From positions 5,885 through 69,884 of the forward strand of contig JACPZS010000034.1 in the NCBI GenBank assembly GCA_016195385.1: 64,000 nucleotides of DNA. The letters are read 5' to 3'. Below the pieces are notes generated by a model. That model saw only the letters and a list, made by a program, of their open reading frames with translations. It did not search any database and was not told the DNA's origin. Numbering within the stretch: the stretch's first letter is position 1; each line of letters starts with the position of its first letter. The position numbers and the translations under genes were made by a program. Origin of the DNA: Verrucomicrobiota bacterium (GTDB lineage Bacteria > Verrucomicrobiota > Verrucomicrobiia > Limisphaerales > JACPZS01). This document shows positions 1,969-30,844 of the stretch, piece by piece.

Positions 1969-2049
1969 CCGTTGGCGGCCCGTAACGTCAATCCGGCTGC
2001 ATCCGGTTCAAAGTTGAATTTGCCGCGACGGAAGCGGATGCTCCGCGCG

Positions 2050-3462: not shown

Positions 3463-3486
3463 CAAGTCTGAATGGCGAACCTTGCG

Positions 3487-6558: not shown

Positions 6559-6621
6559 GTCTGTTTTAGCTCAAGGGAATTTAGTGCTAGTGTTTGTTCC
6601 ATCAAATACGACTCCGTTCAC

Positions 6622-7026
6622 TTAGCCCACGAAACCATGAATCAAGCACCGAAGAAACACTACATTCGTTTCCGATTCGACGACGCCCGGTGAAACAATC
6701 TGGTAACTGCTGTCGGCATCAGTCAGTGCGGACCAATTCGCAGCAAACCGTCGTGCATGATCCCCAGGGCACACTACAATCCGGAGATCGCTAACCTCAT
6801 TGCTCAGACACTGCCAGTTGGACGGAAACTTGCCTTCGTGGTCGGCCGCCCATAATTGTCCCCCTATTCCCAGAGAGTGCATCTGATTCACGCAACGTTG
6901 GAATTCGTCTCGTTTATCGACCCGCGCTTTCACTTCCGAGTAATGGAACGCCATCCAAGCGCCAAAACCAAAAATCACAACCAGAGACGCTACGGCGAAA
7001 AGCACGGTGTTTCCGAGTATCTTCAT
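6622..7026 (-). CDS. hypothetical membrane-anchored protein
   Basis: This 134-aa ORF runs from MKILGN and has one N-terminal TM (VLFAVASLVVIFGFGAWMAF). It contains 'KFPSNWQCLSNEV..LRIVVCPGD', a motif reminiscent of DUF1559-type PVC proteins. I recognised no enzyme motifs. Confidence 0.4.
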   Translation of the reverse strand: MKILGNTVLFAVASLVVIFGFGAWMAFHYSEVKARVDKRDEFQRCVNQMHSLGIGGQLWAADHEGKFPSNWQCLSNEVSDLRIVVCPGDHARRFAANWSALTDADSSYQIVSPGVVESETNVVFLRCLIHGFVG

Positions 7027-7140
7027 GAGCGCTTGATTATTTGTAACGCAAAACTTTGTCTTCCTAAATCGGTGGAGCAAGTCATTTTCCCGTACTCCCA
7101 CTTCGACGGTGGCGCTTAGTCATTTAATAGAGGTAAAGTT

Positions 7141-8397
7141 TCAAAACTTCAGAAAGATGCACTTCAGGTACTCCGCTTCTTTGAATCCCACCGGATGATC
7201 CGCCGGATGCCCGGCTCGGCGCAGTTCGGCAAAATTGCGGTGTGTACGCGCGGCGGCTTGCTGGACTGCGGCGAAAAATTCCTCTGCAGAGACGTGGGCC
7301 GAGCACGACGACGCGACGAGAATTCCGCCCGCTCGCAATCGCGCGATCGCTTGCTCGGCGAGGCGTCCGTAGGCTTGGATGGCAGCGGCGCGTTCGGTCT
7401 CCCGTTTGGCCAGCGACGGCGGATCGAGCACGATGAGATCGAATTTTCGTCCCGATTTTTTCGCGAGCCACTCGAAGACGTCGGTTTGCTCCGTTTCGTG
7501 ACGACACTGCGCCATGTTCGGAGCAGCGGCGTTCAACGCGAAGTTTCGTCGCGCGCTTTCGAGCGCGTACGCGCTGATATCGAGGTCGGTTACCGAGACG
7601 GCTCCGCCACGGGCGGCGTAGAGTGAGAAGCCGCCGGAGAAACTAAACGTATTCAAAACTTCGCGGCCCCGCGCGTGTGATTCGACCTCGCGGCGGTTCT
7701 CGCGTTGATCGAGGAAGAAGCCTGTTTTTTGCCCGCACAAAACGTCGGCTTCAAACCGCAGCCCGTTTTCCAGAAACACAACCGGCTCGACGATGGGCGG
7801 CCCAAGGAGAATCTGGCCGTCGGCGCAACTGAACTCTTTCGCCGCAATTTCCTGGATGTTCCGACTCAGACGCAGCACCAGTCGCAGCGGGTGGAGCGCG
7901 TTTTGGATCAAGCTCGTCACTTCCGAGAGGCGCGGCAGCCACGCGGCGGTGTAGAGTTTGAGAACCAGTGTCGTGTCGTAACGATCCAGCACCAAGCCAG
8001 GCCAGCCGTCGCTCTCGCCGTAAATCCAGCGAAAGCCCGTTGTGTCGGGTGCAAAAAGATTTTCGCGGCGAGCCAGTGCGGATTGCAACCGCGCACGCCA
8101 CCAGGCGTCGTGGAGCTTGGCCGGCTTGCCCGCATGCAAAATGCGCACGCGCAGCGGCGACTCCGGATCAAACAATCCCACCGCAAGGAACCGGTCGTTG
8201 CGGTCGTAGATCACCGCGAGTTCACCGCAGAGACCTTCACGATTTTGCTCCCGCACACTGGTGGCAAACAGCCACGGATGTCCGGCACGCAATTGCTGCT
8301 CCGCCGCAGTCGTGACGCGCAACCGAAGTGTGGCAGGCGCAGGCGGGGAAGATGTGGTTTTCACAATCTGCATCTGGCGAGTGGCACTCTGGCTCAT
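7141..8397 (-). CDS. class I SAM-dependent rRNA (cytosine-C5) methyltransferase, RlmI/RlmK-like (PUA + MTase)
   Basis: The N-terminus is PUA-like ('[10 protein letters not shown]'). It has the SAM-binding '[16 protein letters not shown]' and the motif IV-like '[13 protein letters not shown]'. Its length of 418 aa is typical of the family. Confidence 0.8.
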
Positions 8398-8647
8398 TTT
8401 CTTTATGCGCTCGCTTGACCAATTAGAAGATCGGCTGAAGTGGATTTGACACTGTTTCCTTCCTGGGCGGAGAGGTCGTTGAGCTGCGGCATCAACTCAG
8501 CCTCAGCTGCAAGTTCCGAAACCACAAATTGGGCGCTTGCGCGCGGCAAAGAGTTTCTGGTAGCTTGCGCGTCCTTGTTGGAAAACCGCAGGCTTGGTAA
8601 TGGCTGCTGGTTTGTCTGCAAGTGGTGGTAAAATGGCAATTTAGGTG

Positions 8648-8734
8648 GCCGATGTGGCGGAATTGGCAGACGCGCTAGACTCAAAATCTTGTGTCTTAAC
8701 AGACGTGTGGGTTCGACCCCCTCCATCGGCACCA
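8648..8734 (+). tRNA. tRNA-Leu (anticodon CAA), type II with long variable arm, CCA encoded
   Basis: I folded it by hand. The acceptor is GCCGATG/CATCGGC and the anticodon loop is CT-CAA-AA. The variable arm is GTCT-TAAC-AGAC, the T-loop is TTCGACC and the discriminator is A followed by CCA. The overall sequence parallels E. coli leuX. There are two U.U mismatches, at 28:42 and 50:64. Confidence 0.88.
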
Positions 8735-8864
8735 AAATTTGGAAACGATGCAAAGCCAAGGCCGCCCCGCTGCGGAATTTCTCCTGCAAGGCCAGATCCG
8801 GGACACTGACTTTGAAATCCTCACGACAGAAAGGATAAATGTCATTGAGCAAGCGGCTGATAAT

Positions 8865-9971
8865 TCACCTTTCGCGCCGAAACATTTTCCCGGGCAGTTG
8901 TTTCACCATCCGCTTCATCTCCAGACTCAACAGCGCCACCGAAACCGCCGAACTGGGCAGCCCGCTTTGGCGAATCACGTCGTCGATGGAAATTTCCTCT
9001 TCGCTCAAAGTCTCGTAAACTTTTTGCTCCGGCTCGGACAACACCAGCGCGGGCAGCACGCCGGTTTCGTTCGCTGAAGGCGGGCGGTTCGTAGCCGGGA
9101 AAAGATACTCGAACTCGCTTAACACATCCTCCGCGCTTTCGCAAAGTTTCGCGCCCTTCTTGATCAAATCGTGGCAGCCCTTGCTGCGTGGCGAGTCGAT
9201 GCGGCCTGGCACCGCGAAAGTTTGCCGGCCGTAATCGACCGCAAAATTTGCCGTGATGAGCGCGCCGCTCGTCAGATTTGCTTCGACGACCACGGTGCCG
9301 AGCGTCATGCCCGCGACGATGCGGTTGCGGATCGGGAACGACTGTTTGTCCGCGATGCGATTGAAAGGGAATTGCGTAATCAGCGCGCCATTGGCCGCGA
9401 TGCGCTCGAACAACTCAGCGTTCTCCGGTGGAAAAACGATGTTGATGCCGTTGCCCAGCACGGCGACGGTGCGGCCCTTCGCGCTCATCGCGCCTTGATG
9501 GGACGCGGTGTCGATGCCCCGCGCGCCGCCGCTGACCACGGTGACGCCGACGTAGGCGAGTTGATAAGCGAGCTTGCGCGCTGTCTCCAGACCGTAGCTC
9601 GTCGTCATGCGCGAACCGACCATCGCGACGGCGTTTTTATCCTTTTCGGTGAGCGCGCCCTTGACGTAGAGGACAACAGGCGGGTCGTAAATTTGGCGGA
9701 GCAACTCCGGATAGGCGTCGTCGCTTTGAATCAAAACGTGACAGCCGAATTCTTGAATGCGCTTCAATTCGCCCGCAAGATCGATCGATTTTTCCCAGTC
9801 CACAATCGCTTGCGCGGTCTCGTCGCCGATGCCACGCACTTGGAGGAGTTGCGCTTTGGAGGCACGGAGAATCGTTGGTGCTTCGCCAAAGTGATCAAGC
9901 AACTGTCGCACGCGCACTGGCCCGACATGCGAAATCATGTTCAAGGCGACAAATGCTTCCCGGGGATCCAT
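8865..9971 (-). CDS. dprA: DNA-processing protein DprA (Smf)
   Basis: It has an N-terminal HhH/SAM-like region ('LLQVRGIGDETAQAI'). The Rossmann-like core reads 'VAMVGSRMTTSYG', 'VVSGGARGIDTASHQGA' and 'AVLGNGINIVFPPEN'. The C-terminus is a winged helix. Confidence 0.9.
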   Translation of the reverse strand: MDPREAFVALNMISHVGPVRVRQLLDHFGEAPTILRASKAQLLQVRGIGDETAQAIVDWEKSIDLAGELKRIQEFGCHVLIQSDDAYPELLRQIYDPPVVLYVKGALTEKDKNAVAMVGSRMTTSYGLETARKLAYQLAYVGVTVVSGGARGIDTASHQGAMSAKGRTVAVLGNGINIVFPPENAELFERIAANGALITQFPFNRIADKQSFPIRNRIVAGMTLGTVVVEANLTSGALITANFAVDYGRQTFAVPGRIDSPRSKGCHDLIKKGAKLCESAEDVLSEFEYLFPATNRPPSANETGVLPALVLSEPEQKVYETLSEEEISIDDVIRQSGLPSSAVSVALLSLEMKRMVKQLPGKMFRRER

Positions 9972-10053
9972 GCGAGACGATTAGACGATCGGGCGTGGAG
10001 CGGCAAGCCGAGAAATTGCTGTCGAGAGATCCGATTTCAAAAAAAATCTCCGC

Positions 10054-11427
10054 CTAACGCTCCAGTGGCGCGGCGTTGATTTCCACAGGCGTGCTCTTGC
10101 CGAGTTGCGCCTGACCCTGAATTAAAAAGAAGGGAATTGGACTCATGCTATTCGCCGATTGTCCGGCCACCGCTTGAACGCCAAGTTTTTCATTCGCGGC
10201 CAGGGCATTCGTCGCGGTGAAATTTCCATTGAAGACCACCAATTGATTCAAGCTCCGGTTCGTGCCCGCGACGCGAAAGAAATAAACCTGGTTCGACACT
10301 GGCGCGGCGTACGCAAGATTTAGCTGCGTTCCCGCAGTGGTCTGGATTTGAGGAAGCGCCTCGGCACCCGACTTGCGCTTCTCGCGCAATAGTTTGTCTT
10401 TGCTTTCGCCAGCTTGTGCCACTCCGTTCGCGGCGAAAGTCTGGGAAACGTCCTTTTCCGTGCCGACCAACGCGCCGAGATAGATTGAACCGTCTTCATC
10501 GATGACGCGCAATTGATCGGCGGTTTGTTCGACCGTGAACGAGTTGAGAAAAGCTTGAGAGTTGTTGGCCGCCACTTGCGCGCTTTTTGCTGCTGGCGCC
10601 TGTGGCGCAGCTTTACGCGGCGAACTGTCTGCGACCTTGTCGCTGTCCGCCGGACTTGCCGCCGGGTCTTGCGCTTTGGCCTGAGCCGGTAAAATCAGTC
10701 CGTAGCGAGTCGCTGACTGAGAATTGAAATTCTGATTCTGATAGCGGTTGGCGAGGGAGAGCGCCGGCACCGCGATGGCCAGCGCGCGCGTCGTCGAATT
10801 CGTCGCAGCCAATCCCGCGCGTCGCGCCTCGAGCTTGCCGCCCGCGCCCGCAGCTTCGCCAAGTTCCACTGCGCCAGGCGCAGTTGCGGCGTCCGCGCGC
10901 GCCGCGCCCGGAGCGGCTTGCGAGCCTGGCTTTGCGGCGGTAGCGACGATGATGACGGACGGCGGGTTTGTGTTTGCGCTCGTCTTTTCCGCGAGCGAAC
11001 GAGCGAGCTTCAGATTCGCCGGCGTCTCGCTACCCGGGCGCTTGGCTCGTTGCTCTAACGCATCGGCCTTCTGATCCGAGAGCGACAGCTGGTTGAACTC
11101 CTTCAAGCTTTCGGATTCGGTCGCGGAATTTTTGGTGAGTTTGAACTCGGCGTTTGGCCGCGACGCCGACTGCATGCGGATGAAAATCGTCAAGACGAGC
11201 GCCACGACGAGCGCGCCGCCCACGGCGAATCGTGGCCAAAGCGCAAGCACGGCATTGAGCCACGAAGCTTTCGCGGCCGGCGATTCTTTGCGCAACCGCG
11301 CCACTTCAGCCTGGAGCAGATTGCGCGTGGCCGGATGCGGCTCGAACGGTGCGCCAGCTTCGGCGCGCCGCTTTTGTGCGGCGGCCTTGAGCAGCTCTTC
11401 CATTTTTTTGTTCGGTTCCGACGGCAT
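10054..11427 (-). CDS. putative anti-sigma factor / single-pass membrane protein
   Basis: It starts 6 nt downstream of the ECF sigma gene. It has a short cytoplasmic N-terminus, one TM ('FAVGGALVVALVLTIFI') and a long Ala/Pro-rich extracytoplasmic region. No HxxxCxxC zinc motif is present. The call rests on position and topology only. Confidence 0.5.
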   Translation of the reverse strand: MPSEPNKKMEELLKAAAQKRRAEAGAPFEPHPATRNLLQAEVARLRKESPAAKASWLNAVLALWPRFAVGGALVVALVLTIFIRMQSASRPNAEFKLTKNSATESESLKEFNQLSLSDQKADALEQRAKRPGSETPANLKLARSLAEKTSANTNPPSVIIVATAAKPGSQAAPGAARADAATAPGAVELGEAAGAGGKLEARRAGLAATNSTTRALAIAVPALSLANRYQNQNFNSQSATRYGLILPAQAKAQDPAASPADSDKVADSSPRKAAPQAPAAKSAQVAANNSQAFLNSFTVEQTADQLRVIDEDGSIYLGALVGTEKDVSQTFAANGVAQAGESKDKLLREKRKSGAEALPQIQTTAGTQLNLAYAAPVSNQVYFFRVAGTNRSLNQLVVFNGNFTATNALAANEKLGVQAVAGQSANSMSPIPFFLIQGQAQLGKSTPVEINAAPLER

Positions 11428-11433
11428 AACAAG

Positions 11434-12054
11434 TTAGACGGAGAACGGCGTGGATTTCTCCCGATCAAAATGCGGGCGCAAGATTTCTTCGAGCCGATCT
11501 AGGCAACGGCTCAAGCGCGAGCTGACAGTCTTCGGATTAAGTTGGAGCGTTCGGCCAATTTCTTCGTAGTCCAAATCGCCGAAGTAACGAAGCTCGATAA
11601 TCTCGCGGCAAGGATCGCCGAGCGTCTCGAGCGCATGATGCAACATCGTCGAGCGCTCGCCATTGACGAGTTGCGCGTCCGGTCCCGGCGCGTGGCTGGG
11701 CGGGTCGATGGTCAAGCCGCTTTGTTCGTCCTCGGCCTGCAATGAGATTGTGGTCTGACCGCCACCACGTTTGAGGGCGTACTGGCGTTCGCGGAAATCG
11801 CGCGCTTTGTTCGCCGCGACGCGGAACAGCCACGTTTGAAACTGACTCTGGCCTTGGAACGATTGGATGTTCTTGATGACGCTCAGGAAAGTTTCCTGGC
11901 AAATCTCCTCGGCGTCTTCGCGCGAAAAATCCGCGGCCAGTTGGAAAATGAAGCGCCCGGTGGCGTCATAATGGAGGGAAAAGATTTCATCCCACGCGGC
12001 GGACTCGCCGCGCCGGCAGCGTGACATCAGATCTGATTCCGTGTCGGGACTCAT
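11434..12054 (-). CDS. RNA polymerase ECF-type sigma-70 factor
   Basis: Region 2 reads 'EEICQETFLSVIKNIQSFQGQSQFQTWLFRVAANKARDFRER'. Region 4 reads 'CREIIELRYFGDLDYEEIGRTLQLNPKTVSSRLSRC'. Confidence 0.9.
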   Translation of the reverse strand: MSPDTESDLMSRCRRGESAAWDEIFSLHYDATGRFIFQLAADFSREDAEEICQETFLSVIKNIQSFQGQSQFQTWLFRVAANKARDFRERQYALKRGGGQTTISLQAEDEQSGLTIDPPSHAPGPDAQLVNGERSTMLHHALETLGDPCREIIELRYFGDLDYEEIGRTLQLNPKTVSSRLSRCLDRLEEILRPHFDREKSTPFSV

Positions 12055-12223
12055 CGCCGAAAACTGTACGCCGGGCGACTGCCTTTGGCGAGTGTTTGCT
12101 GCGGAGCTTACTTCGCCGCGTCCGGATTGATTGCTGGAAGAATCTCGACCGCAGCTAGGGGTTCGGTTCGGGGCGTCTTGTTTGCCGGCTCGATCTGAAA
12201 TGAATTCAGCAATCGGCCGAAGG

Positions 12224-12626: not shown

Positions 12627-14339
12627 TCAACTTCCTCTGGTCAATGACCATTGGCCGCGAACGGTCTTGCGCAACTGCGGAGTTGCGGGCGGCAGTTTGG
12701 TCGGGTCCATGAAGTTGAGATCGAACGTCCAGTTCCGCGTCGGCGGGTTGTAAACGCCAATGGTCGATCCCGTTCCGAGCCACGGAGCAGTCGCGTACTG
12801 ACTGTAGTACATGACCACCATCGAGCCGTTGTAAGTGAAGGTGTAACCCGACCAGCTTTCGAGGAAACGCGGAAAATTCTCGACCCCGCCACTGTAATAA
12901 GTGCCATTGGAGGGCACGATCCCACCAAGAAAGGCCGCGTTGACGGTCGTGTTGCCGGCGGTGCGGCTGCCGAGTGCCAAGGCCGAATTTGCATCGCTCC
13001 AACTGGTGGAGAGCACATTGATGGAGTCACCGATCAGTGCTGCGGGCAGAGTGGTTGTAGTGTTTGTCGTGCCCAGGAATCCAGCGGGAGCGTTGTAATG
13101 TCCTTTGACATACATCGGATTCGGCGTGGCTACCGTCAAGCCGAGCGGTGGCAACGTCTGGCCATTGACGACGCGAACGCCGGATTCTGTGCTCCCGGTT
13201 TGAGTTCGCAGGTCCGCCACGTAAATCGAACTGACATCCCGCCCCAAAGACGAGCGCAGGACGGCGTTGGTCGCGCTCCACGTTCGCAATTTACTCACGT
13301 CGATTTCAGTCGTCTTGATGGTTTTGGCTTCGCGGCTGTTGTAAAATGAAACGTTGGTGTTGATAAAAAGGTTGTACTGCGCGGAAGGAATCGCCGTGGC
13401 AAAATTATTGAACAGCCCGCTCTTTACCGTCACGGCGCTATTGGAAACAACGACGATGAGGTCGCACTGATTGTAGAAGCGCTGCTGCCCCATCAGCGAA
13501 GTGGGGCTTTCACCGCTGGGCGGGATGTTGAGAATCGCCTGGACAGATGCGGGCGTGTTGTTGGTTCCGATGGGCAGATTGAGCGACGCGACGCCGGAGT
13601 CGTGTTCGCCGAGGAATGAAATAGTTCCCGGAGTGCGAGTCAACGGGTCCAACGGGCTTTTGCCTTGGATGATCGTGCCGGCGGCGGTCACGTCGGTCTG
13701 GAACGTGAGTGAGGCTTGCGGCTGCAGATAAATGTTGTTGTTGCCGTGGACGCGGCCGGTGACGGTCATGTTCGGGCCGGGGTTGATCTCCAAATCCATC
13801 GAGTAGAAAATCGCGAATTGGAAGATCGGGATGGAGGCGATCTGGAAATCCTGCTGCACGCCGGCGCTAATCGTGTAGGGCGAACCAACTGGGTGCGCGC
13901 TGCTGCTCACAGAATAGGTCGCCGCGTACGCCTGCAAGCCGCTGTATTGGGATTGCAGGGTCGCGAAACCCCACGCCACGGAGTTGTTCACCGTGGTGTG
14001 TCCCGCCGCACCGGAATTGTTCACAAAAGAAAAATTTGCCCAAGTGCTGCTTTCTGAAGTGGTGGGCACCAGGTCTCTGTAAACATTAATGTTGGCAGCC
14101 ACGGTGGCGGCGCCTTGGGTCATGTAATCGTAGTTCATGCGCGCCAGCACTTTTTCCGTGGCGGCTTCCGCGGCGGCAACACAACTGAAGTATTGGTTGT
14201 TACGGGCGGTTAGCTGCGCGCTGTTGGAAGTCCACGTCAGAGCGCCACCGACGATGAGCAGCCCCAGGCCAACGAATCCCATGACCATCATCAAGGCGTA
14301 ACCTTGGGCGGTGCGCGGTTGGGAAAGGAGAATTTTCAT
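12627..14339 (-). CDS. large PilX-N/GspK-like pilus-associated protein (cassette A, gene 3)
   Basis: The N-terminus 'QGYALMMVMGFVGLGLLIVGGALTWTSNSAQLTARNNQY...AEAATEKVL' looks like a PilX_N/GspK-type hydrophobic helix. The rest is an Asn/Thr/Ser-rich, beta-rich body with 'YYSGGVENFPRFLESWSG' near the C-terminus. It begins 3 nt after the upstream pseudopilin gene ends. Confidence 0.6.
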   Translation of the reverse strand: MKILLSQPRTAQGYALMMVMGFVGLGLLIVGGALTWTSNSAQLTARNNQYFSCVAAAEAATEKVLARMNYDYMTQGAATVAANINVYRDLVPTTSESSTWANFSFVNNSGAAGHTTVNNSVAWGFATLQSQYSGLQAYAATYSVSSSAHPVGSPYTISAGVQQDFQIASIPIFQFAIFYSMDLEINPGPNMTVTGRVHGNNNIYLQPQASLTFQTDVTAAGTIIQGKSPLDPLTRTPGTISFLGEHDSGVASLNLPIGTNNTPASVQAILNIPPSGESPTSLMGQQRFYNQCDLIVVVSNSAVTVKSGLFNNFATAIPSAQYNLFINTNVSFYNSREAKTIKTTEIDVSKLRTWSATNAVLRSSLGRDVSSIYVADLRTQTGSTESGVRVVNGQTLPPLGLTVATPNPMYVKGHYNAPAGFLGTTNTTTTLPAALIGDSINVLSTSWSDANSALALGSRTAGNTTVNAAFLGGIVPSNGTYYSGGVENFPRFLESWSGYTFTYNGSMVVMYYSQYATAPWLGTGSTIGVYNPPTRNWTFDLNFMDPTKLPPATPQLRKTVRGQWSLTRGS

Positions 14340-14342
14340 TGC

Positions 14343-14969
14343 TTATTCGAGAACCCGGCGCGTGATTTTGTTGCGTAGCTCATAATAATCGAAGTAGTTG
14401 CTCGGCCCGATGATGTAGATCGGGAACTCGATTTGATAGAACTGGAGATCCATGGCGATTACGCGGTTGTTCTGATCGTTGGTGGTAACACTGCCTCGGA
14501 AATCTTCGGCTCGAAAGACGAGGTTGTTGGTGATGAAGTGGGCGACCACGTTCACGGTGGAGGAACCGTTGGTGGTGCGTTTGAGCTTGCTGTCAGTCGA
14601 GTCCCAGAAATAGCGGATGAAGTTGTTTGTATTCGTGGTCGCATAGACCTGCAGCGAGTTGCCGATTTGTGCCGTATTGGTCGGAGTCGGCGTAAAAGAG
14701 CTTAGTCCGCCGGTGCCGACTTTCACAATTTTGGCGGTGCGAATTTCAGAGATAAGCAGGCTGATCGCCTGGCGCGCATCGTCGCTTGCGCCGAGCTTGG
14801 CCTTGGTGATTTCAAACATGCGCACGCCAAAGAGCTGGGCGTAAAGCAAGCCCGCGATGAACATGAACAGAATGGCCATCGAGACCATGATTTCCACCAG
14901 GGTGAAAGCGTGGGTAAACACCTTCCGATGCTCAATTAACCGGCAAGTGATTATGGCGTTCGTTTTCAT
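14343..14969 (-). CDS. prepilin-type N-terminal cleavage/methylation domain protein (PilW/GspJ-like pseudopilin; cassette A, gene 2)
   Basis: It has the class III signal motif 'HAFTLVEIMVSMAILFMFIAGLL'. I chose the ATG at 14969 (MKTNAI...), which overlaps the upstream stop as TAATG. 'ARQAISLLISEIRTA' parallels cassette B gene 2. Confidence 0.75.
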   Translation of the reverse strand: MKTNAIITCRLIEHRKVFTHAFTLVEIMVSMAILFMFIAGLLYAQLFGVRMFEITKAKLGASDDARQAISLLISEIRTAKIVKVGTGGLSSFTPTPTNTAQIGNSLQVYATTNTNNFIRYFWDSTDSKLKRTTNGSSTVNVVAHFITNNLVFRAEDFRGSVTTNDQNNRVIAMDLQFYQIEFPIYIIGPSNYFDYYELRNKITRRVLE

Positions 14970-15418
14970 TAGTCCACGCTGCGATAGGTGGCGACAGTGT
15001 TCGTGAACAATCCTCGGCTCATGAACTTCCACACGCAATCCACCTGCACCATCCTCAGCTGGGGCGCGGTCGAGATTGTGGTAATCGTGGTGAAGTTAGT
15101 GGCGTAAACGATGTTCGTGCCGGAACGCGGTATGTCGAGAGTGTTGATGGAGACCGGAAAATTTACACCGATCAATTCGTCCACGGCGGGACTCCCGTCC
15201 GGATCCCACTTGGTGGCGCGGGTTTGTTCGAGGCGTTGCATCGCCAGTGAGTGCGCGGCCAGCGAATAGGCCGACCACTCGGCTCGTTGAGCGGAAATAA
15301 CATAGCCGTTGACGATGGCTCCCATCGAAAGCGCGGCGATCGACATTGCGATCGTCACTTCCACCAACGTGAAAGCCTTTGTGCCGTGACCCGGCTTGCT
15401 GGATTTGAAAATGTTCAT
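14969..15418 (-). CDS. prepilin-type N-terminal cleavage/methylation domain protein (PilV/GspI-like pseudopilin; cassette A, gene 1)
   Basis: The motif 'GTKAFTLVEVTIAMSIAALSMGAIV' is followed by 'LAMQRLEQTRATKW' and a C-terminal 'MVQVDCVW' strand, which resembles GspI/PilV. Confidence 0.75.
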   Translation of the reverse strand: MNIFKSSKPGHGTKAFTLVEVTIAMSIAALSMGAIVNGYVISAQRAEWSAYSLAAHSLAMQRLEQTRATKWDPDGSPAVDELIGVNFPVSINTLDIPRSGTNIVYATNFTTITTISTAPQLRMVQVDCVWKFMSRGLFTNTVATYRSVD

Positions 15419-15476
15419 CGCGGCAGAAATCTGTTCTTCATCAATCGTGGCAAGCCCTTAGCCGACACAGTGCGTT

Positions 15477-15492
15477 AGCAACAAGTTTGCCA
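15477..15492 (-). promoter_or_regulatory. candidate sigma-54 (-24/-12) promoter for cassette A
   Basis: The minus strand reads TGGCAA-ACTTG-TTGCT, against the consensus TGGCAC-N5-TTGCW. GG and GC have the correct 10-nt spacing. The -12 element lies about 58 nt upstream of the cassette A ATG (15418). Confidence 0.4.
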
Positions 15493-15760
15493 GTGAGGAA
15501 TTACGGCTATGTGACATGCATGCTGGCCGTGAAGTGTAAAAGATTGGGACAGCGGGTGTCTCAAATCGGTACATCGCGGCCGAGCAACTTAGAAAAATTT
15601 CAGTGTTGAAATATCCGAAAGGTCATGAAGAGCACCGCGATCAGTCAGTTAGATTCCTATCGCATGCAGTCATTTTGCAGGTCAACTCACTCGCTGTGCT
15701 GTTGAAGTGGACCAGCTTAAATGTATTTCAGTTTGCATCCGTCCATTACGGCAAGAACTT

Positions 15761-15776
15761 CGGCATTCGATTTGCT
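15761..15776 (+). promoter_or_regulatory. candidate sigma-54 (-24/-12) promoter for cassette B
   Basis: The plus strand reads cGGCAT-TCGAT-TTGCT with correct GG-N10-GC spacing. It ends 15 nt before the ATG at 15792, which implies a very short leader. Confidence 0.35.
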
Positions 15777-15791
15777 AGGTCATTCGTTTGA

Positions 15792-16292
15792 ATGAAATTT
15801 AAGCACGGGGCAATTCGATGCGATGACGACAGTCCCGCTTTACGGTGCGGCTTCGTCCGCCAGCAGGCATTCACGCTTATCGATGTGATGATGGCGATGC
15901 TGGTCATTGGACTCGCGATCATCTCGCTGCAGGCGGGCATTTCCTGTGGCTTCATGACCGTGGACGCGTCGCGGGAAACATTGCGTGCGACGCAGGTCAT
16001 GCTGGAAAAGCTGGAGACCGTGCGTCTGTATTCGTGGAGCCAGCTTAACACCGCCGGCTTTATGCCGACCAATTTTACCGCCCCCTTTAATCCTTCTACC
16101 AACGCCACGGGCGGCTTCAATTATCAGGGAACGCTTTCGATCAACAATGCCTCGTCGGTTTCGGAAACCTACAGCAACGACCTTAAAGAAGTCATCGTCA
16201 CGGTCACATGGACGAATTTGAATATCCTCCGGACTCGCACGATGAGCACTTTCGTCTCTCAATATGGTCTTCAGAACTACATCTACTACTAA
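15792..16292 (+). CDS. prepilin-type N-terminal cleavage/methylation domain protein (PilV/GspI-like pseudopilin; cassette B, gene 1)
   Basis: It has 'QQAFTLIDVMMAMLVIGLAIISL', then 'MLEKLETVRLYSW' and the C-terminal 'VIVTVTWTN', which parallels cassette A gene 1. The 26-aa leader is long, so the start is uncertain. Confidence 0.7.
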   Translation: MKFKHGAIRCDDDSPALRCGFVRQQAFTLIDVMMAMLVIGLAIISLQAGISCGFMTVDASRETLRATQVMLEKLETVRLYSWSQLNTAGFMPTNFTAPFNPSTNATGGFNYQGTLSINNASSVSETYSNDLKEVIVTVTWTNLNILRTRTMSTFVSQYGLQNYIYY

Positions 16293-16809
16293 GAAGTCAG
16301 CTAAGGCGGGTTTCACGTTGGTGGAATTGATGACCGCCTCGGGTGTTGGCACGCTGGTTATCACCGCGACTGGCGCGCTCCTGTTCTTCTGTCTGCGAAG
16401 TTTTGTCGCGCTGACGAACTACGTCGATCTGGAAAATTCCAGTCGCAATGCTCTCGACACCATGTCCGCCGAAATTCGGCAGGCCAATAATCTGGCATCG
16501 TTCAATTCAACGAATTTGACGCTGACCGACTATGATGGGGTATTGTTACAATATAATTACAATCCCACAGCCGGAACTCTTTCGCGCATCAAGAATGGGC
16601 AAACCAAAGCATTGCTCTCCGGTTGCGATGCGCTCACGTTCGGTATTTTTCAGCGCAATCCGACCAACAACTATAATGTCGTGACGACGACGAATGCGTC
16701 GTTGTGCAAGCTCATTCAATTAAACTGGACATGTTCCCGGAGCATCTTTGCCGCAAAGGTGAACACGGAATGCGTTCAGTCGGCGAAAATTGTGATTCGC
16801 AAACAATAA
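16264..16809 (+). CDS. prepilin-type N-terminal cleavage/methylation domain protein (PilW/GspJ-like pseudopilin; cassette B, gene 2)
   Basis: The canonical 'KAGFTLVELMTASGVGTLVI' is followed by 'SRNALDTMSAEIRQA'. It overlaps the upstream gene by 29 nt. Confidence 0.75.
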   Translation: MVFRTTSTTKKSAKAGFTLVELMTASGVGTLVITATGALLFFCLRSFVALTNYVDLENSSRNALDTMSAEIRQANNLASFNSTNLTLTDYDGVLLQYNYNPTAGTLSRIKNGQTKALLSGCDALTFGIFQRNPTNNYNVVTTTNASLCKLIQLNWTCSRSIFAAKVNTECVQSAKIVIRKQ

Positions 16810-16813
16810 CCTT

Positions 16814-18118
16814 ATGAAAATATCGCACTCTCATCAGCGGGGCAACGTGCTCTTAACTGTGTTGGCCACGACCGGCATCATCGGCATAAGCTTGGCGAGC
16901 TATCTGACACTCACTTCGAGTCAGAATGCCAACCTGATGCGAGCGCAATCTTGGAATGCGGCGATTCCCTTGGCCGAGTCGGGCATTGAAGAGGCGCTGA
17001 CGCAACTCTATTACAACGGAGGATCGAATCTAGCCGTCAATGGCTGGTCCTATAGCTCCGGTGCTTATTCGAAGCGGCGAAGTTTTGGAGCGAACTACGT
17101 TGTTGCGCAAATCTCCTCCAATGCCAACCCGACCATCACTGTCCAGGGATTCGTTCAGATGCCGACGTCCACTAATTATATTTCCCGCCGCGTGCAAGTT
17201 GGCACGCTGGCGGACGGAATGTTCATGCGAGCGATGCTGGCGAAGAATTCCATCGATCTCAACGGGAACAACATCGCCACCGATAGTTTTGATTCGACTG
17301 ATCCGAATTACAGCACCGGCGGCATGTACGATCCCGCCAAAACTAAAGACAATGGTGATGTGGCGACCAACTCCGGGTTGGTGAATTCACTGAACGTCGG
17401 CAATGCCGATATTTATGGGCATGTCGCTACCGGCCCCGGTGGCAGCATTAGCGTTGGGCCGAATGGCGCCGTGGGTGCCGCCGCTTGGATCGCCGCAGGC
17501 AACCATGGGATCGAACCCGGCTGGTCGCGTAACGACATGAACATGAACTTTCCCGACGTCCAGGCACCGTTCGCGGGCGGAGCATTTACTCCCTCCGGTG
17601 GCAATTACACGGGCACAAATTATACCTATTTGCTTACCGCTGGAAACTATGCGATCGATTCGATCAGCATGAGTGGCACAAAAAAAATGCTGGTGACAGG
17701 AAACGCGATCCTCTGGATATACAGCAGTTTTTCGATGGCCGGTCAGACACAAATCATTCTGGCGCCAGGCGCCACTTTGAAAATGTACGTGGGAAATACG
17801 ACTGGTTCCGGTGCGAGCGCCAGTCTTGGTGGCAACGGCATCGTCAATCCTGGAAACGCAATGAATTTTCAGTACTTCGGCATGCCCAGCAACACCAGCC
17901 TTAGCTACAGCGGCAACGCCGCCTTTACGGGAACGGTGTACGCCCCCAATGCGAATTTCTCCCTCGGAGGCGGCGGAAACAACATTTATGATTTCGTCGG
18001 CGCGAGCGTTACCTCCACGGTCAGCATGAACGGACATTTCCATTTTCACTACGATGAAAATCTCGGGCGCATCGGCCCGCGACGAGGATACATCGTCACG
18101 TCGTGGAATGAGATTTAA
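16814..18118 (+). CDS. PilX-N-like large pilus-associated protein (cassette B, gene 3)
   Basis: The N-terminus 'RGNVLLTVLATTGIIGISLASYLTLTSSQNANLMRAQSW..AESGIEEALTQL' is PilX_N-like. The C-terminus has the Gly/Asn-rich repeat 'FTGTVYAPNANFSLGGGGN...GHFHFHYDENL', as seen in TadG/PilX-type tip proteins. Confidence 0.6.
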   Translation: MKISHSHQRGNVLLTVLATTGIIGISLASYLTLTSSQNANLMRAQSWNAAIPLAESGIEEALTQLYYNGGSNLAVNGWSYSSGAYSKRRSFGANYVVAQISSNANPTITVQGFVQMPTSTNYISRRVQVGTLADGMFMRAMLAKNSIDLNGNNIATDSFDSTDPNYSTGGMYDPAKTKDNGDVATNSGLVNSLNVGNADIYGHVATGPGGSISVGPNGAVGAAAWIAAGNHGIEPGWSRNDMNMNFPDVQAPFAGGAFTPSGGNYTGTNYTYLLTAGNYAIDSISMSGTKKMLVTGNAILWIYSSFSMAGQTQIILAPGATLKMYVGNTTGSGASASLGGNGIVNPGNAMNFQYFGMPSNTSLSYSGNAAFTGTVYAPNANFSLGGGGNNIYDFVGASVTSTVSMNGHFHFHYDENLGRIGPRRGYIVTSWNEI

Positions 18119-20312: not shown

Positions 20313-20876
20313 GTGAACGAGATCACCCGCCTACTCAGCGCCGCCGAATCTGGCGATCCCAAGGCCGCCGGAGAATTGTTGCCGCTCGTTTACACCGAAC
20401 TACGCCAGCTCGCCGCGCACAAAATGGCCGGCGAAATGCCGGGTCAGACGCTCCAGCCGACGGCCCTCGTTCACGAAGCCTGGCTGCGTCTGACGGGCGA
20501 TGACGCCGCAAAATTTCAGAATCGCTCTCACTTTTTCGCCGCCGCCGCCGAAGCCATGCGCCGCGTGCTCATCGACAACGCCCGCCGCAAACAATCCCAA
20601 AAGCGCGGCACAGGTCGCGAGCGCGTGGATCTCGACGACGTGGATATCGCCGCCCACGCGGACGACACGACGCTTCTGCTCATCGACGACGCCCTCGCGA
20701 AACTCGCCCGCGAAGATCCGCCGTCGGCCGAACTCGTGAAGTTGCGCTTCTTCGCCGGCCTCACCAACGAACAAGCGGCGCAGGCGCTCGGCATTTCGGA
20801 GCGCACGGCCAAGCGTTACTGGACATTTGCCCGCGCCTGGCTTTACGCCGAACTGCGGCGCGAGTTGGATGACTGA
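20313..20876 (+). CDS. ECF sigma factor, TIGR02999/Sigma70_ECF (kinase-associated) type
   Basis: It uses a GTG start. The diagnostic N-terminus is 'ITRLLSAAESGDPKAAGELLPLVYTELRQLAAHKM...QTLQPTALVHEAWLRL'. Region 4 reads 'VKLRFFAGLTNEQAAQALGISERTAKRYW'. Confidence 0.85.
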   Translation: MNEITRLLSAAESGDPKAAGELLPLVYTELRQLAAHKMAGEMPGQTLQPTALVHEAWLRLTGDDAAKFQNRSHFFAAAAEAMRRVLIDNARRKQSQKRGTGRERVDLDDVDIAAHADDTTLLLIDDALAKLAREDPPSAELVKLRFFAGLTNEQAAQALGISERTAKRYWTFARAWLYAELRRELDD

Positions 20877-20900
20877 TTCAATTCGTCTGAAACCCGATAG

Positions 20901-20971
20901 CCGAAACTCATAAACTCAGAAAATGCCACCGACGTGCCACATCATTTATTTTTTGAGTTTATGAGTTTTGG
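20901..20971 (+). other. long AU-rich RNA hairpin (23-bp stem, 25-nt loop) between the sigma and kinase genes
   Basis: CCGAAACTCATAAACTCAGAAAA (20901-20923) pairs with TTTTTTGAGTTTATGAGTTTTGG (20949-20971). The only non-Watson-Crick positions are two G.T pairs, which are G.U in a plus-strand RNA but C.A mismatches in a minus-strand RNA. Confidence 0.55.
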
Positions 20972-21068
20972 CTTCAATTGGCTGGGCAAACAAAAAAATG
21001 TCCAAGCCCTGGCCCTTTTCGCGCGCCGATTACGCATGTATGAATGAAACCCGAAACCGGTTTCGCCT

Positions 21069-24000
21069 ATGAACGAGCAAAACAAATCACTGCGAACCAT
21101 CTTCAACGAAGCGGCTGAGCTCGCCGACGCTGCCCGACGCGCCGAATATCTTCAACGCGCTTGCGGCACCGACGCCGATCTTCGGCGCAAACTCGAGGAC
21201 TTGCTTTCCGCGCACAGCGACGCCGGAGGGTTTCTCGGCGACGGTGGCGCGACTACCGTCCTCGCGCCCACGCCGATCACCGAACGTGCCGGCGACCGCA
21301 TCGGCCGCTACAAATTGCTCCAACAAATTGGCGAAGGCGGTTGCGGCGTTGTTTACATGGCCGAACAGGAGGAACCGATCCGCCGCCGCGTCGCGCTCAA
21401 GGTCATCAAGCTCGGCATGGACACCAAGAGCGTCATCGCCCGCTTCGAGGCCGAACGCCAGGCGCTCGCCTTGATGGACCATCCGAACATCGCCAAAGTG
21501 TTCGACGGCGGCGCGACCGACGCGGGCCGTCCGTTCTTTGTCATGGAACTCGTGCGTGGTGTGCGCATCACGGATTATTGCGACGAGGCGAAACTTTCCA
21601 CCCGCGAGCGGCTCGATCTCTTTATCAAAGTTTGTCAGGCGATTCAGCACGCGCATCAAAAGGGCATCATCCACCGCGACATCAAACCGTCGAACATCCT
21701 CGTCACGGTCAACGACGGCGTGGCCGTGCCCAAGGTGATCGACTTCGGCATCGCCAAGGCCACCGAAGCGCGGCTGACGGACAAGACGCTCTTCACGCAA
21801 TTCGAGGCGCTCATCGGCACGCCCGCCTACATGAGTCCGGAGCAGGCCGTGATGACGAGCCTGGACATCGACACGCGCAGTGACATCTACAGCCTGGGCG
21901 TGCTGCTCTACGAAATGCTCACCGGCAAAACACCGTTCGACGCGAAGGAGCTCCTGGCTTCTGGAATCGATGAAATGCGCCGCACGATTCGGGAGCAGGA
22001 ACCGGTGCGGCCTTCGACGCGGTTGAGCACGATGCTGGAGGGCGAACTGACGACCACGGCCAAGCACCGTCAATCCGAAGCGCTGAAGTTGATCAACCTG
22101 CTGCGCGGCGACGTGGACTGGATCGTGATGAAGTGCCTGGAGAAAGATCGCGCCCGGCGCTACGACACGGCCAACGGGCTCGCGAGTGACATTCAACGAC
22201 ACCTCAATAACGAAGCCGTCCTCGCCCGTCCACCGAGTGCGGCGTATCGGTTCCAGAAACTGGTTCGAAGGAACAAGCTCGCCTTCGCGGCAGCGACTGC
22301 TGTGGCAGCCGCATTGGTGATCGGCTTGGGGGCAGCCACCGTAATGTTCTTTCGCGAGCGCATGGCCCGGAAGGGTGAGCAGCAACAACGAGTCGAGGCT
22401 CAGTCGGCACAAAAAGTTGCCGAGACCGCGCAGCAGCATGCCGACACCCAGGCGCGCAAGACCTCCGAAAGTCAGGAGCAATCGCGGCGGTTGCTCTACG
22501 CGTCGGACATGAACCTCGCCCAGCAGTCGCTGAAGCTGAATAATCTCGGCCGGGCGCGCCGGTTGCTGGAACGGCATCGGCCGCAGCCCGGCGCGGAAGA
22601 CCTTCGTGGTTGGGAGTGGCGTTACCTCTGGCAACTGACCCGCAGCAGCGCCCTCGTCACTCTCACCAACCGGCCAACACGCGGATTCAATGTCAGCTTT
22701 TCCCCGGATGGCAGCCGCCTGGCCGTGGGTTGGTGGGACGGCCACGTGGACTTGTGGGATACGCCGGGTCGGCGATTCGTTAGGTCGCTAACGGACCGTG
22801 AGTATCTCCACAAGGGACGGGTGGCCTTCTCTCCGATTCGCAATCTTCTGGCGGCCACCTCCGAACCCAAGGTGGTTTCCCTGTATGACCTCGACTCCGG
22901 CCGTGAATCGACCCTCTGGCGGGCACCCGACCAAGGCGAGTGGCACGTCCGTGACCTGGCGTTTTCGCAGGATGGTTCCAAGGTGGTCATCTACGCCGGA
23001 TCACCCCCAAATTACATCGTCAGACTAACACCCGAACTGGGTGCCGCAGTCTGGGTGGTGAATGTGTCTTCCGCCACGATCGAAAGCCGCCACGCGACAT
23101 TTGGCAGCTATTCCCATGAGGAAGGAGGTGCCCGGCTATCCCCCGACAACCGTCGTCTGTATCTGGCCCGCTCTGAATTTCCAAATTACCGCTACAGCAT
23201 CCAGTGCGTTGACCTCAGCACCGGTCGGGAACTCTGGCAGACTGAGCCGCAACGGGACCAAGGGCTGACCGCGCTGGACATCTCGCCCGACGGGCGCGTG
23301 CTGGCTTCAGGCTCGGGATTTGAAGATCCCACGATCCACGTCTGGGAGGCCGCGACCGGCCGGCTCCTCGTTCGGCTCGACGGACACACCGGTTGGGTTT
23401 CCGATCTGACGTTCACCAGAGACGGACGGCGCTTGGTCTCAGCGGCGAGTGATCAATCCATCCGCTTTTGGGATACGAACACATGGGCTGAGACGCGCGT
23501 GCTTCACGGCCATACCGACGAGGTTCATGCCATTGCGATCTCGGAGCGCGCACAACTCGTCGCCAGCGCAGGCAAGGACGGGAATCTCATGTTGTGGAAG
23601 GAAGATGGCAAGAGCGTCATGGATGGATACAGCCGTCTGCCAGAAAACCTCCTGCTCGATGAGGTTCTGCCGCTGGACCGCTCACGCGTGTTGTTGCTGC
23701 CGCCGGGCAAACCGCCCGAGTTGGTCGATCTCAAACGCGACTCTCCCTCGGTGTCGCTGCCTCAGATTGGAACCTCCACCGATGTCCTGGGCTGGTTTGG
23801 CACCAACATTCTTTGCCACTGGAACGGAACCAACCAGATCCTTGTCCGCGAGTTGCGCGGCGCGGAGTTCATTCAGCGCGGGGCCATCACGTTGACTTCC
23901 GGCACGCGCCCGTCCGGGTTTGCCTACAGCGTCACGCGCCAGTTCCTGGCATGGAGCGAAGGGACGTCCTTGGCGTCGGTTTACCTGGCGAGCCTTGAGG

Positions 24001-24686
24001 TACCCGGTCGTCGAATCGAACTGACAAGCGATGTTCCCGGTCTCAGCCCTTACCGCTTCAGTGAAGATGGAAATCACCTGGCGGCCAGGACCAAGGGGAA
24101 AGAGATGATGAGGGTCTGGAACATCGCATCCGGGCAGATCGTGACGTCCATCGGCGAGCGCGTCGATCATGCAGTCTTTGCTGCCGCCGGGCAGGTGCTG
24201 GTCGCGGAAATCTGGCTAGGCAACGACCATGAAATCCGATTCTACGATTTGACCCACCCCGATCGGTCGCCCCGGCGTGTTCCCGGGAAAGAAATGTCCG
24301 TGTCGCTTGCGGTTTCGCCCGATGGCCGACTGGTGGCTTCGTCCACCTTGGGCGCGCTGGTGCGGCTGTTTGATCCCACCAAGGGCGAGTGGATCGAAGA
24401 CCTCCGCGGCCACCTGAACAATGCCGACTGCGTCGCCTTCTCCCCGGATGGGCGACGGTTGATTTCCAGCTCGATTGGGCGGGAGGCTGTCAAGCTCTGG
24501 GATATCGGGACGCGGCAGGAGCTGCTGACCTTGAGTGGCGCCGGTTCAGGTTTAGATGCCGCCAGTTGGAGTAACGATGGGGACATGATCCTCGCCGGCG
24601 CGCCCTGGCAAGCGTGGCGCGCGCCGTCGTGGGAGGAAATCGCCGCCGCCGAGGCGAAGGAGAAAATGGAGAACAAGCAGCCATGA
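21069..24686 (+). CDS. Ser/Thr protein kinase with transmembrane segment and C-terminal WD40 beta-propeller repeats
   Basis: The Hanks kinase motifs are 'GEGGCGVVY', 'VALKVIK', 'HRDIKPSNIL', 'DFGIAK' and 'GTPAYMSPEQ'. A TM reads 'AAATAVAAALVIGLGAATVMFF'. There are multiple WD40 units, for example 'GHTGWVSDLTFTRDGRRLVSAASDQSIRFWD'. Confidence 0.9.
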   Translation: MNEQNKSLRTIFNEAAELADAARRAEYLQRACGTDADLRRKLEDLLSAHSDAGGFLGDGGATTVLAPTPITERAGDRIGRYKLLQQIGEGGCGVVYMAEQEEPIRRRVALKVIKLGMDTKSVIARFEAERQALALMDHPNIAKVFDGGATDAGRPFFVMELVRGVRITDYCDEAKLSTRERLDLFIKVCQAIQHAHQKGIIHRDIKPSNILVTVNDGVAVPKVIDFGIAKATEARLTDKTLFTQFEALIGTPAYMSPEQAVMTSLDIDTRSDIYSLGVLLYEMLTGKTPFDAKELLASGIDEMRRTIREQEPVRPSTRLSTMLEGELTTTAKHRQSEALKLINLLRGDVDWIVMKCLEKDRARRYDTANGLASDIQRHLNNEAVLARPPSAAYRFQKLVRRNKLAFAAATAVAAALVIGLGAATVMFFRERMARKGEQQQRVEAQSAQKVAETAQQHADTQARKTSESQEQSRRLLYASDMNLAQQSLKLNNLGRARRLLERHRPQPGAEDLRGWEWRYLWQLTRSSALVTLTNRPTRGFNVSFSPDGSRLAVGWWDGHVDLWDTPGRRFVRSLTDREYLHKGRVAFSPIRNLLAATSEPKVVSLYDLDSGRESTLWRAPDQGEWHVRDLAFSQDGSKVVIYAGSPPNYIVRLTPELGAAVWVVNVSSATIESRHATFGSYSHEEGGARLSPDNRRLYLARSEFPNYRYSIQCVDLSTGRELWQTEPQRDQGLTALDISPDGRVLASGSGFEDPTIHVWEAATGRLLVRLDGHTGWVSDLTFTRDGRRLVSAASDQSIRFWDTNTWAETRVLHGHTDEVHAIAISERAQLVASAGKDGNLMLWKEDGKSVMDGYSRLPENLLLDEVLPLDRSRVLLLPPGKPPELVDLKRDSPSVSLPQIGTSTDVLGWFGTNILCHWNGTNQILVRELRGAEFIQRGAITLTSGTRPSGFAYSVTRQFLAWSEGTSLASVYLASLEVPGRRIELTSDVPGLSPYRFSEDGNHLAARTKGKEMMRVWNIASGQIVTSIGERVDHAVFAAAGQVLVAEIWLGNDHEIRFYDLTHPDRSPRRVPGKEMSVSLAVSPDGRLVASSTLGALVRLFDPTKGEWIEDLRGHLNNADCVAFSPDGRRLISSSIGREAVKLWDIGTRQELLTLSGAGSGLDAASWSNDGDMILAGAPWQAWRAPSWEEIAAAEAKEKMENKQP

Positions 24687-30500: not shown

Positions 30501-30633
30501 TGGTGAGCTTGGCGGCGGGTGGAAGCTGGGCGAGTTGCGCCGGCGTTGGCGGCGCAGACTTCTCGGCGGCGAGCATTTTCAACACACCGAGCACGGCTAA
30601 CCCGCTAATCCATTGGCGCGAAAACGACAGCAT
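27571..30633 (-). CDS. PSCyt/DUF1549/DUF1553 protein (paralog of 3487..6558) with internal beta-sandwich insertion
   Basis: It has a signal peptide and '[17 protein letters not shown]'. The DUF1549-like motif is '[13 protein letters not shown]' and the DUF1553-like motif is '[18 protein letters not shown]'. An inserted module carries '[11 protein letters not shown]' and '[11 protein letters not shown]'. Confidence 0.85.
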
Positions 30634-30828: not shown

Positions 30829-30844
30829 TGGCATAGGCATTGCT
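30829..30844 (+). promoter_or_regulatory. candidate sigma-54 (-24/-12) promoter for the flgF operon
   Basis: TGGCAT-AGGCA-TTGCT matches TGGCAC-N5-TTGCW at all positions of the TGGCA/TTGC core. It ends 12 nt before the flgF ATG (30857). Confidence 0.45.

Follow-up and report, generated by a model that had tools for sequence, protein, structure and literature searches.

Probable sigma-54 promoters of two divergent pseudopilin operons in a Verrucomicrobiota bacterium, one of them abutting its start codon

Sigma-54 promoters that precede type IV pilin genes, or flagellar rod and hook operons, are textbook cases. For the rod and hook genes, known examples are the flgFGHIJKL operon of Pseudomonas aeruginosa (FleR) and the systems of Vibrio (FlrC), Caulobacter (FlbD) and Helicobacter and Campylobacter (FlgR). 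The -12 element is defined such that transcription begins some 12 nt past the C of its GC. The minor-pilin operon of Pseudomonas is not known to be RpoN-dependent, and the only sigma-54 regulon known to have been studied within the PVC superphylum is that of Chlamydia.

In Chlamydia trachomatis, which belongs to the same superphylum as the bacterium considered here, sigma-54 controls cell-envelope and secretion genes, and its targets differ from the pseudopilin cassettes and flgF described below (PMC7482065). In E. coli, the mRNAs made with sigma-54 have been noted for long 5' UTRs, and sigma-54 occupies many sites that are no productive promoters (PMC4591121). Promoters of Verrucomicrobia are essentially uncharacterised. 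The main text of Francke et al. 2011 does not mention the phylum, and sigma-54 in Pedosphaera or Limisphaerales was the subject of no paper that literature searches turned up. Within the library searched, no paper tied sigma-54 promoters to leaderless mRNAs, which is no proof of novelty.

The window analysed here is a stretch of 64,000 nucleotides of a metagenome-assembled Verrucomicrobia genome whose nearest relatives are Limisphaerales/Pedosphaera MAGs. Two elements in it can be compared with the RpoN/PilR pilin promoters of P. aeruginosa, Myxococcus and Geobacter (pilA) and with the RpoN2-PilRX system of Xanthomonas (PMC7170775). As in those systems, a -24/-12 element precedes a prepilin-type gene, and the expected activator would be a two-component AAA+ protein. 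Unlike in those systems, the targets are repeated three-gene minor-pseudopilin cassettes instead of the major pilin, no pilR/pilS pair adjoins, and one of the two promoters abuts a start codon. A third element resembles the sigma-54 promoters of flagellar rod and hook genes, in that a near-consensus TGGCA-N7-TGC precedes a rod/ring operon led by flgF. It differs from the known ones in the position of its -12 box, which lies so close to the ATG in every lineage (12-15 nt) that almost no 5' UTR is predicted. Specialists would expect sigma-54 before pilin-like and flagellar genes. As a type the promoters are therefore ordinary, though new for a phylum that has not been studied in this respect, and the predicted near-leaderless arrangement is the unusual variant.

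The two pseudopilin operons, of three genes each, diverge from a spacer of 373 nt (15419-15791), cassette A lying on the minus strand and cassette B on the plus strand. They are distant paralogues with an identical layout, and the first two genes of each carry the prepilin N-terminal methylation motif (Pfam N_methyl). Cassette A begins with a prepilin-type pseudopilin of 149 aa (14969-15418, 861 homologues). It is followed by a second pseudopilin of about 208 aa, counted from an internal ATG (14343-14969), which adjoins the first gene in nearly all of 80 genome loci. The third gene encodes a 570-aa protein with an N-terminal membrane anchor (12627-14339) and is likewise third in nearly all of these loci. 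The order A1-A2-A3 is thus kept as an operon in nearly all 80, and the exceptions are truncated by contig ends.

Cassette B begins with a 166-aa pseudopilin that has a leader peptide of 25 aa and a weak N_methyl match (15792-16292). Next come a 181-aa pseudopilin with an N_methyl match (16264-16809) and a DUF7305 protein of 434 aa (16814-18118; Pfam PF23981). The cassettes also recall the Verru_Chthon cassettes (NCBIfam TIGR02596-TIGR02600), which are repeated multi-gene prepilin-type cassettes of Verrucomicrobia. Cassette A gene 2 scored 17.2 bits against TIGR02599, for which the cutoff is 256.5, and the other genes gave no match to these families, so the genes of the two cassettes do not belong to them.

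The divergent arrangement of A and B is rare among relatives, being found in L163/L164, in L053 and probably in L162, so each cassette has an upstream region of its own. Rfam, terminator and consensus scans of the spacer detected no Rfam family, no terminator and no sigma-70-like promoter. A 62-aa open reading frame in the spacer (15603-15791) was taken as spurious; the sequence there is poorly conserved.

The element of cassette A is TGGCAAACTTGTTGCT on the minus strand (15477-15492), with 58 nt from its last base (15477) to the A (15418) of the ATG. The element of cassette B is CGGCATTCGATTTGCT on the plus strand (15761-15776), 15 nt from the ATG at 15792. An in-frame TGA stands directly before this ATG, so the start of cassette B cannot lie further upstream. 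The third element, TGGCATAGGCATTGCT, lies on the plus strand (30829-30844), 12 nt before the ATG of flgF at 30857. The flgF gene, which encodes a flagellar rod protein (30857-31597, plus strand; Pfam), heads the operon flgF-flgG-flgA-flgH-flgI...flgN-flgK-flgL, and its start codon is fixed by the N-terminus MNVSL..., which is conserved in orthologues. A consensus scan found no sigma-70-like promoter before it.

An earlier note, made from the letters of the window, had described the two spacer elements, and its sequences, coordinates and distances of 58 and 15 nt proved exact on direct reading. It had also put the chance expectation of the nine-base core below one per window. Counted on both strands, the exact core GGCA-N6-TTGCT is expected 0.55 times and occurs three times, a number reached in none of 100 shuffles of the window. 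The orientation claimed for the matches holds as well, since each of the three cores points towards the start of a gene, namely the first genes of cassettes A and B and flgF. Less stringent forms of the consensus are not enriched in the window. GGC-N7-TTGC is found 20 times against 20.6 expected and the consensus with up to two mismatches 36 times against 36.0. Thus, only the stringent form carries information. As a spacing control, GGC-N8-TTGC gave 25 matches against 20 expected.

A position weight matrix built from relatives alone ranks the three sites first to third in the window, that of cassette A at the top, with scores of 20.7, 19.1 and 15.9 bits; the next match has 13.1. The lowest of the three, that of cassette B, is equalled somewhere in 10 of 20 shuffled windows. 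Judged by the window alone, the sites of cassette A and flgF are exceptional, and that of cassette B is not significant. Its position and its conservation in orthologues rescue it.

Conservation was assessed in 80 genome loci round homologues of cassette A gene 1 and in 80 metagenome loci round homologues of cassette B gene 1, the latter gathered with an alignment (A3) tighter than A2, whose diversity did not suit such a scan. The contigs of three close cassette B relatives and of seven flgF orthologues were added. For each non-redundant homologue, the 300 nt upstream were scanned with an approximate matrix after the consensus of Barrios et al. 1999, and scores of at least 12 were counted. Before cassette A homologues, a forward match was found in 41 of 82 regions and a reverse match in none, and the other GG-to-GC spacings (N7-N9 and N11-N13) gave 0-2. 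The figures for cassette B gene 1 were 38 of 76 forward, two reverse and 0-1 at other spacings. For flgF they were 12 of 12 forward, none reverse and 0-3 at other spacings. By these scans, roughly 100 non-redundant relatives keep the signature before their homologous cassettes, and only on the strand that faces the gene and only at the canonical spacing. About a third of the homologous loci have no match even at a score of at least 10; these may have other promoters, degenerate sites or misplaced gene starts.

The motif of the clade is YGGCA-N6-YTGCT. A logo of 102 unique sites, which were chosen with the same matrix, reads T (66%)-G-G-C-A, six uninformative bases and Y-T-G-C-T, with GGCA and TGCT nearly invariant. 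The GG and the C at -12 are conserved at 100% and the G at -13 at 99%. The GG-N10-GC spacing named in the earlier note holds in the window as well. The T at -11 reaches 95%, though the scoring matrix gave T no preference there. Positions -21/-20 and everything upstream of -26 are uninformative. Two further canonical-looking matches in the window, both on the minus strand, are probably no sites, since each breaks a position that is 95-99% fixed in the logo. One lies antisense within flgN and has G at -11 (36056-36071); the other has G at -14 (20924-20939).

Ten cassette A upstream regions, from relatives with 63-86% protein identity, were also aligned directly. No column is free of variation except those of the TGG, of T.CT in the -12 box and of the ATG, and no block other than the element is conserved. 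The seven distinct orthologous flgF promoters score 14.3-18.1, and one of them is the perfect consensus, TGGCACGGGCATTGCA. The earlier note had proposed comparing match frequencies in coding and intergenic DNA, and the outcome was favourable. The 1.1 Mb of related DNA contain 144 matches scoring at least 12, of which 91 are no more than 400 nt upstream of a cassette gene 1 and share its orientation.

Among the sigma classes, only sigma-54 has promoters that combine two short blocks with a rigid 10-nt GG-to-GC distance and strand specificity. It is likely, with a probability of roughly four in five, that both spacer elements are sigma-54 promoters, one for each three-gene pseudopilin operon, as judged from sequence comparison.

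Evidence for the matching machinery comes from relatives. Pfam searches of essentially all open reading frames of at least 140 aa and a motif search found no rpoN or activator gene in the 64-kb window, and a regular expression for the RpoN box had no match in 1.1 Mb of related loci. A GAFTGA search over the related loci picked out one activator. This protein, in the relative L021, joins a REC domain to a Sigma54_activat domain (PF00158, 237 bits, with GAFTGA). Its gene lies downstream of the cassette A orthologue, at a distance of 0.5 kb. Activators of this kind work only with sigma-54. No further activator was found among the roughly 160 loci, where tblastn with the L021 protein matched only receiver domains. 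RpoN (COG1508) was present in all seven Verrucomicrobia genomes then in IMG (PMC3372290, Table 1). The sigma-54 machinery thus exists in the clade, which is evidence at clade level and not proof for this genome.

The proposed mechanism starts with RNA polymerase carrying sigma-54, which would bind each YGGCA-N6-YTGCT as a closed complex. The complex would wait for an AAA+ enhancer-binding activator, which would use ATP to open the DNA. A two-component protein of the REC-AAA+ type, with its gene outside the window, would probably serve as the activator. For cassette A, transcription would then begin near 15466 and leave a leader of about 48 nt. Cassette B would be transcribed from about 15787-15792, so that its ATG would lie no more than 5 nt from the 5' end of the RNA, and its mRNA would be translated as a leaderless or near-leaderless one. 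The flgF operon, 15 kb off, would be of like design. The comparisons show the motif with its strand, exact spacing, conservation and fixed distance to the ATG; sigma-54 as its reader, the need for an activator, the points at which transcription starts and the translation of the short-leader mRNAs are inferred.

For cassette A the geometry is ordinary. The distance from motif to ATG, 58 nt in the window, is 54-65 nt in close relatives and 13-240 nt further away.

For cassette B the predicted leader is 0-5 nt long, and the ATG falls at +6 if transcription starts 12 nt after the C. By the same measure, the ATG of flgF falls at +3. Over all loci with such short distances, the short class, the predicted ATG lies at +3 to +7, which corresponds to leaders of 2-6 nt. 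The cassette B family is bimodal in this respect: the distance from motif to ATG is 14-16 nt in eight non-redundant loci (the window, L165, L162, L164, L083, L084, L085 and L118) and 27-46 nt in most, with none at 17-26 nt. The closest cassette B relatives, at 58-74% protein identity, keep the motif and the 14-16 nt to the first in-frame ATG, and the bases in between vary. Likewise, in all seven flgF promoters 12-15 nt separate the motif from an ATG, the product has the N-terminus MNVSL(F/Y/V), and the intervening bases are unrelated between lineages.

A conserved distance from the -12 box to the ATG, across bases that vary, implies leaderless or near-leaderless mRNAs. The earlier note had left two readings of the cassette B site, a near-leaderless mRNA with a leader of about 5 nt or a coincidental match. 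The second is excluded by the closest relatives, and the first is the one that survives, as a prediction from the geometry. On the predicted starts, the mRNAs of cassette B and flgF are somewhat more probably leaderless, or nearly so, than leadered.

The two classes of cassette B also differ in a way that suggests how the short one arose. Measured from the motif, the prepilin cleavage site is equally far in both, at 80-93 nt for the short class and at a median of 86 nt for the long one. Short-class leader peptides have 22-26 aa, those of the long class 17 aa. With the cleavage distance equal and the leader peptide longer, the short class looks as if the ATG had moved up to the transcription start, so that the former 5' UTR became extra leader peptide.

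A wider version of this idea concerns the Limisphaerales/Pedosphaerales as a whole. In it, a conserved class of sigma-54 promoters would have been fused directly to start codons, and the flagellar rod operon and some pseudopilin cassettes would be expressed as activator-dependent leaderless mRNAs. Lineages would have switched between a leadered state, with a UTR of some 20-25 nt and a 17-aa leader peptide, and a leaderless one, with a leader peptide of 22-26 aa, by moving the ATG to the transcription start, with about 86 nt kept from promoter to cleavage site. The odds on this wider version appear evenly balanced.

PMC3616915 reports 171 leaderless mRNAs mapped by dRNA-seq in Sinorhizobium meliloti, all with AUG starts, and gives the AUG start as a requirement of leaderless translation. 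As in those mRNAs, the ATG of the short class would lie at or next to the 5' end, which here is a predicted one. The start codon of the short class is ATG throughout, in a sample too small for significance. Shine-Dalgarno motifs are nearly absent from the genome, with two of 42 genes having one against three of 42 in a control window. A missing ribosome-binding site is therefore normal here and is in itself no evidence for leaderless translation.

If the predicted starts are true, sigma-54 transcription, which usually yields ordinary or long 5' UTRs, feeds leaderless translation in this clade. It would be a compact case of transcription and translation signals packed together, in a genome almost without Shine-Dalgarno motifs. 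The clade-specific motif YGGCA-N6-YTGCT, in addition, assigns two widespread pseudopilin cassette families and the flagellar rod operon to a sigma-54 regulon and provides some 100 predicted sites for tests in cultured relatives.

The alternative that survives best accepts the sigma-54 promoters and gives the short-class mRNAs a leader after all, either from a second promoter further upstream or through translation from a downstream codon. For instance, L162 and L164 have a second in-frame ATG 41-57 nt after the motif, which the gene callers chose, in addition to an in-frame ATG 14-15 nt past the motif (MRLIS.../MNLAF...). The window has no such codon, as no in-frame ATG, GTG or TTG occurs between 15792 and the cleavage motif. 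The MK.. N-terminus of cassette B gene 1 is conserved within its subclade (alignment A2), and the N-terminus MNVSL of flgF is fixed in all lineages; both argue against translation from further downstream. In some relatives motB and a small open reading frame precede flgF on the same strand, which would allow read-through. In the window the gene before flgF is divergent, so that read-through does not apply.

A second promoter for cassette B could be sought in a conserved two-block element upstream in the spacer. One block, GAAGTGTA (15531-15538), is identical in the window, L162 and L163/L164. Together with the left half of a dyad at 15557-15573, it reads on the minus strand as TTGAGACA-N18-TACACTTC, and in four lineages its distance to the promoter is fixed. 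A similar TAGAGACA-N18-TACACC lies at an equal distance from the GG in L002. The element could be a weak second promoter or the site of another regulator, and is a candidate for either role. With the evidence on both sides, leadered short-class mRNAs are unlikely, with perhaps one chance in five left to them.

The reading of the two elements as sigma-54 promoters must also be weighed against a promoter of the sigma-70 family. In that case the TGC-T would be part of an extended -10 element (TGnTAnnnT) with a -35 element upstream, and for flgF transcription would again start at the ATG. In the window, TGcTAAGTT is indeed found at the flgF site, at a distance of 7 nt from the ATG. Among the cassette A relatives, a few carry TTGACA directly next to the TGG, with TATAG following the TGC. 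Such features are scarce over the whole set. TAnnnT at -11 to -6 occurs in only 10 of 104 unique sites, TTGACA (at least five of six bases) at 16-18 nt in only seven, and both hexamers together in one. The region from -34 to -27 is uninformative in the logo. Four of the seven flgF promoters lack a TA..T hexamer and have TTGAGA, TGAGAG, TCAGCA or AAAGCG there, whereas all seven keep TGGCA-N7-TGC. A sigma-70-family promoter is thus very improbable.

The motif could instead be the site of another protein, or a translational operator that acts at the level of RNA. Its position 12-16 nt from the ATG in the short class would suit an operator, and a gene for a NarL/LuxR-type response regulator lies directly upstream of many cassette B homologues. 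In most loci, though, the motif lies at a variable 27-150 nt from the ATG, which does not suit a translational operator. Two short invariant blocks, rigidly spaced about an uninformative middle, are like a promoter and not like an RNA structure, and no Rfam family was matched. As to another protein, the flgF site is found with no NarL/LuxR-type regulator gene nearby on the contigs of the orthologues. Either form of this explanation has a very small probability, comparable with that of the sigma-70 reading.

A chance resemblance to the RpoN consensus in AT-richer intergenic DNA would fit the loose consensus, which occurs at chance frequency, and the cassette B score, which shuffled windows reach half the time, but it conflicts with the excess of gene-facing exact cores and is already refuted by the strand-specific and spacing-specific conservation of the motif (forward strand and GG-N10-GC only) in about 100 non-redundant orthologous and paralogous upstream regions, so its probability is negligible.

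If the elements are sigma-54 promoters, a site for the activator may be expected some 80-150 bp upstream of the promoter, and the dyad offers a candidate. It is imperfect in the window, where it reads TGTCTCAAATCGGTACA (15557-15573), and is conserved in L162 and L163/L164 (alignment A4); L162 has it as the perfect palindrome TGTCTCAAATTGAGACA. From its centre it is about 99 nt downstream to the predicted start of cassette A and about 221 nt to that of cassette B. The dyad may be where the activator (enhancer-binding protein) binds, possibly for both promoters in common, or may belong to a second promoter. Of about 104 loci, 11 have the form TGTC-N9-GACA at 73-151 nt on the upstream side of the GG, where fewer than one is obtained from shuffles, and this position suits a candidate enhancer for a sigma-54 activator.

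Many relatives carry a gene for a NarL/LuxR-type response regulator (REC plus GerE domains) directly 5' of the cassette B homologues, and sometimes of cassette A, in the same orientation. An example is found in L110 (L-numbers denote fetched loci of relatives), where the gene occupies 1922-2581 on the same strand as the cassette. It recurs in at least 25 others, such as L113, L116, L151, L105, L120, L106 and L094, with further examples in L159, L061, L037, L082 and L086. The regulator is 60-95% identical from locus to locus, and gene 1, the promoter-proximal gene of the cassette, begins about 170-270 nt after its end. The window contains no gene for this regulator. To our knowledge, response regulators of this type are not normally sigma-54 activators.

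In one subclade of cassette A upstream regions (L003, L004, L005/L006, L009 and L013), a TTGACA hexamer immediately adjoins the TGG of the -24 box, and TATAG comes after the TGC of the -12 box. In L004, L005/L006 and L009 the -24 box itself has decayed to TGGTCA or TGGTAA. These promoters may be dual sigma-70/sigma-54 promoters, either overlapping or still evolving.

In 11-12 loci (L112, L114, L119, L133, L156, L157 and related B1 loci), which may be close relatives of one another, the cassette B promoter is preceded by a GC-rich inverted repeat, GGCCCTAG..CTAGGGCC. This may be either a repeat element or a transcription terminator for the gene that lies before it.

In some relatives the cassettes are tandemly duplicated (L068, L030, L069). 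For instance, L068 has two A cassettes (6001-12140), and L030 has two B cassettes and one A (99-8854). Each duplicated copy in these three loci has its own upstream region. Cassettes of the Limisphaerales type also occur on contigs titled Akkermansia muciniphila, Bifidobacterium sp., Klebsiella pneumoniae, Chitinophaga pinensis and others (L006, L017, L040, L041, L045, L080), which are probably mislabelled MAG records.

Two other near-consensus RpoN-like matches lie on the minus strand of the window. The first, TGGCACGAGCGTTGCG (36056-36071), is antisense within flgN; the second, TGGCACGTCGGTGGCA (20924-20939), faces the wrong way in the gap that separates an ECF sigma gene from a kinase gene. 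Both violate fixed positions of the clade logo, built from 102 unique sites, and are probably chance matches.

Each cassette is accompanied by an ECF sigma factor gene. Just 3' of cassette A, on the same (minus) strand, such a gene is followed by a 457-residue ORF that has no Pfam match (10054-12054 for the pair). Downstream of cassette B, on the plus strand, a second ECF sigma gene is followed by a 1205-residue ORF (20313-24686 for the pair), which, judged by its sequence, seems to combine a kinase with a beta-propeller. The window also encodes two PSCyt1/PSCyt2/PSD1 (DUF1549/DUF1553) proteins of about 1020 residues, both on the minus strand, at 3487-6558 and at 27571-30633, the latter being the divergent neighbour of the flagellar gene flgF. 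Proteins with these domains are typical of Planctomycetes and Verrucomicrobia.

Translation initiation in the window seems to be largely independent of Shine-Dalgarno signals: tetramers of this kind (GGAG, GAGG or AGGA) occur at -18 to -4 in 2 of 42 gene starts, compared with 3 of 42 in a control interval.
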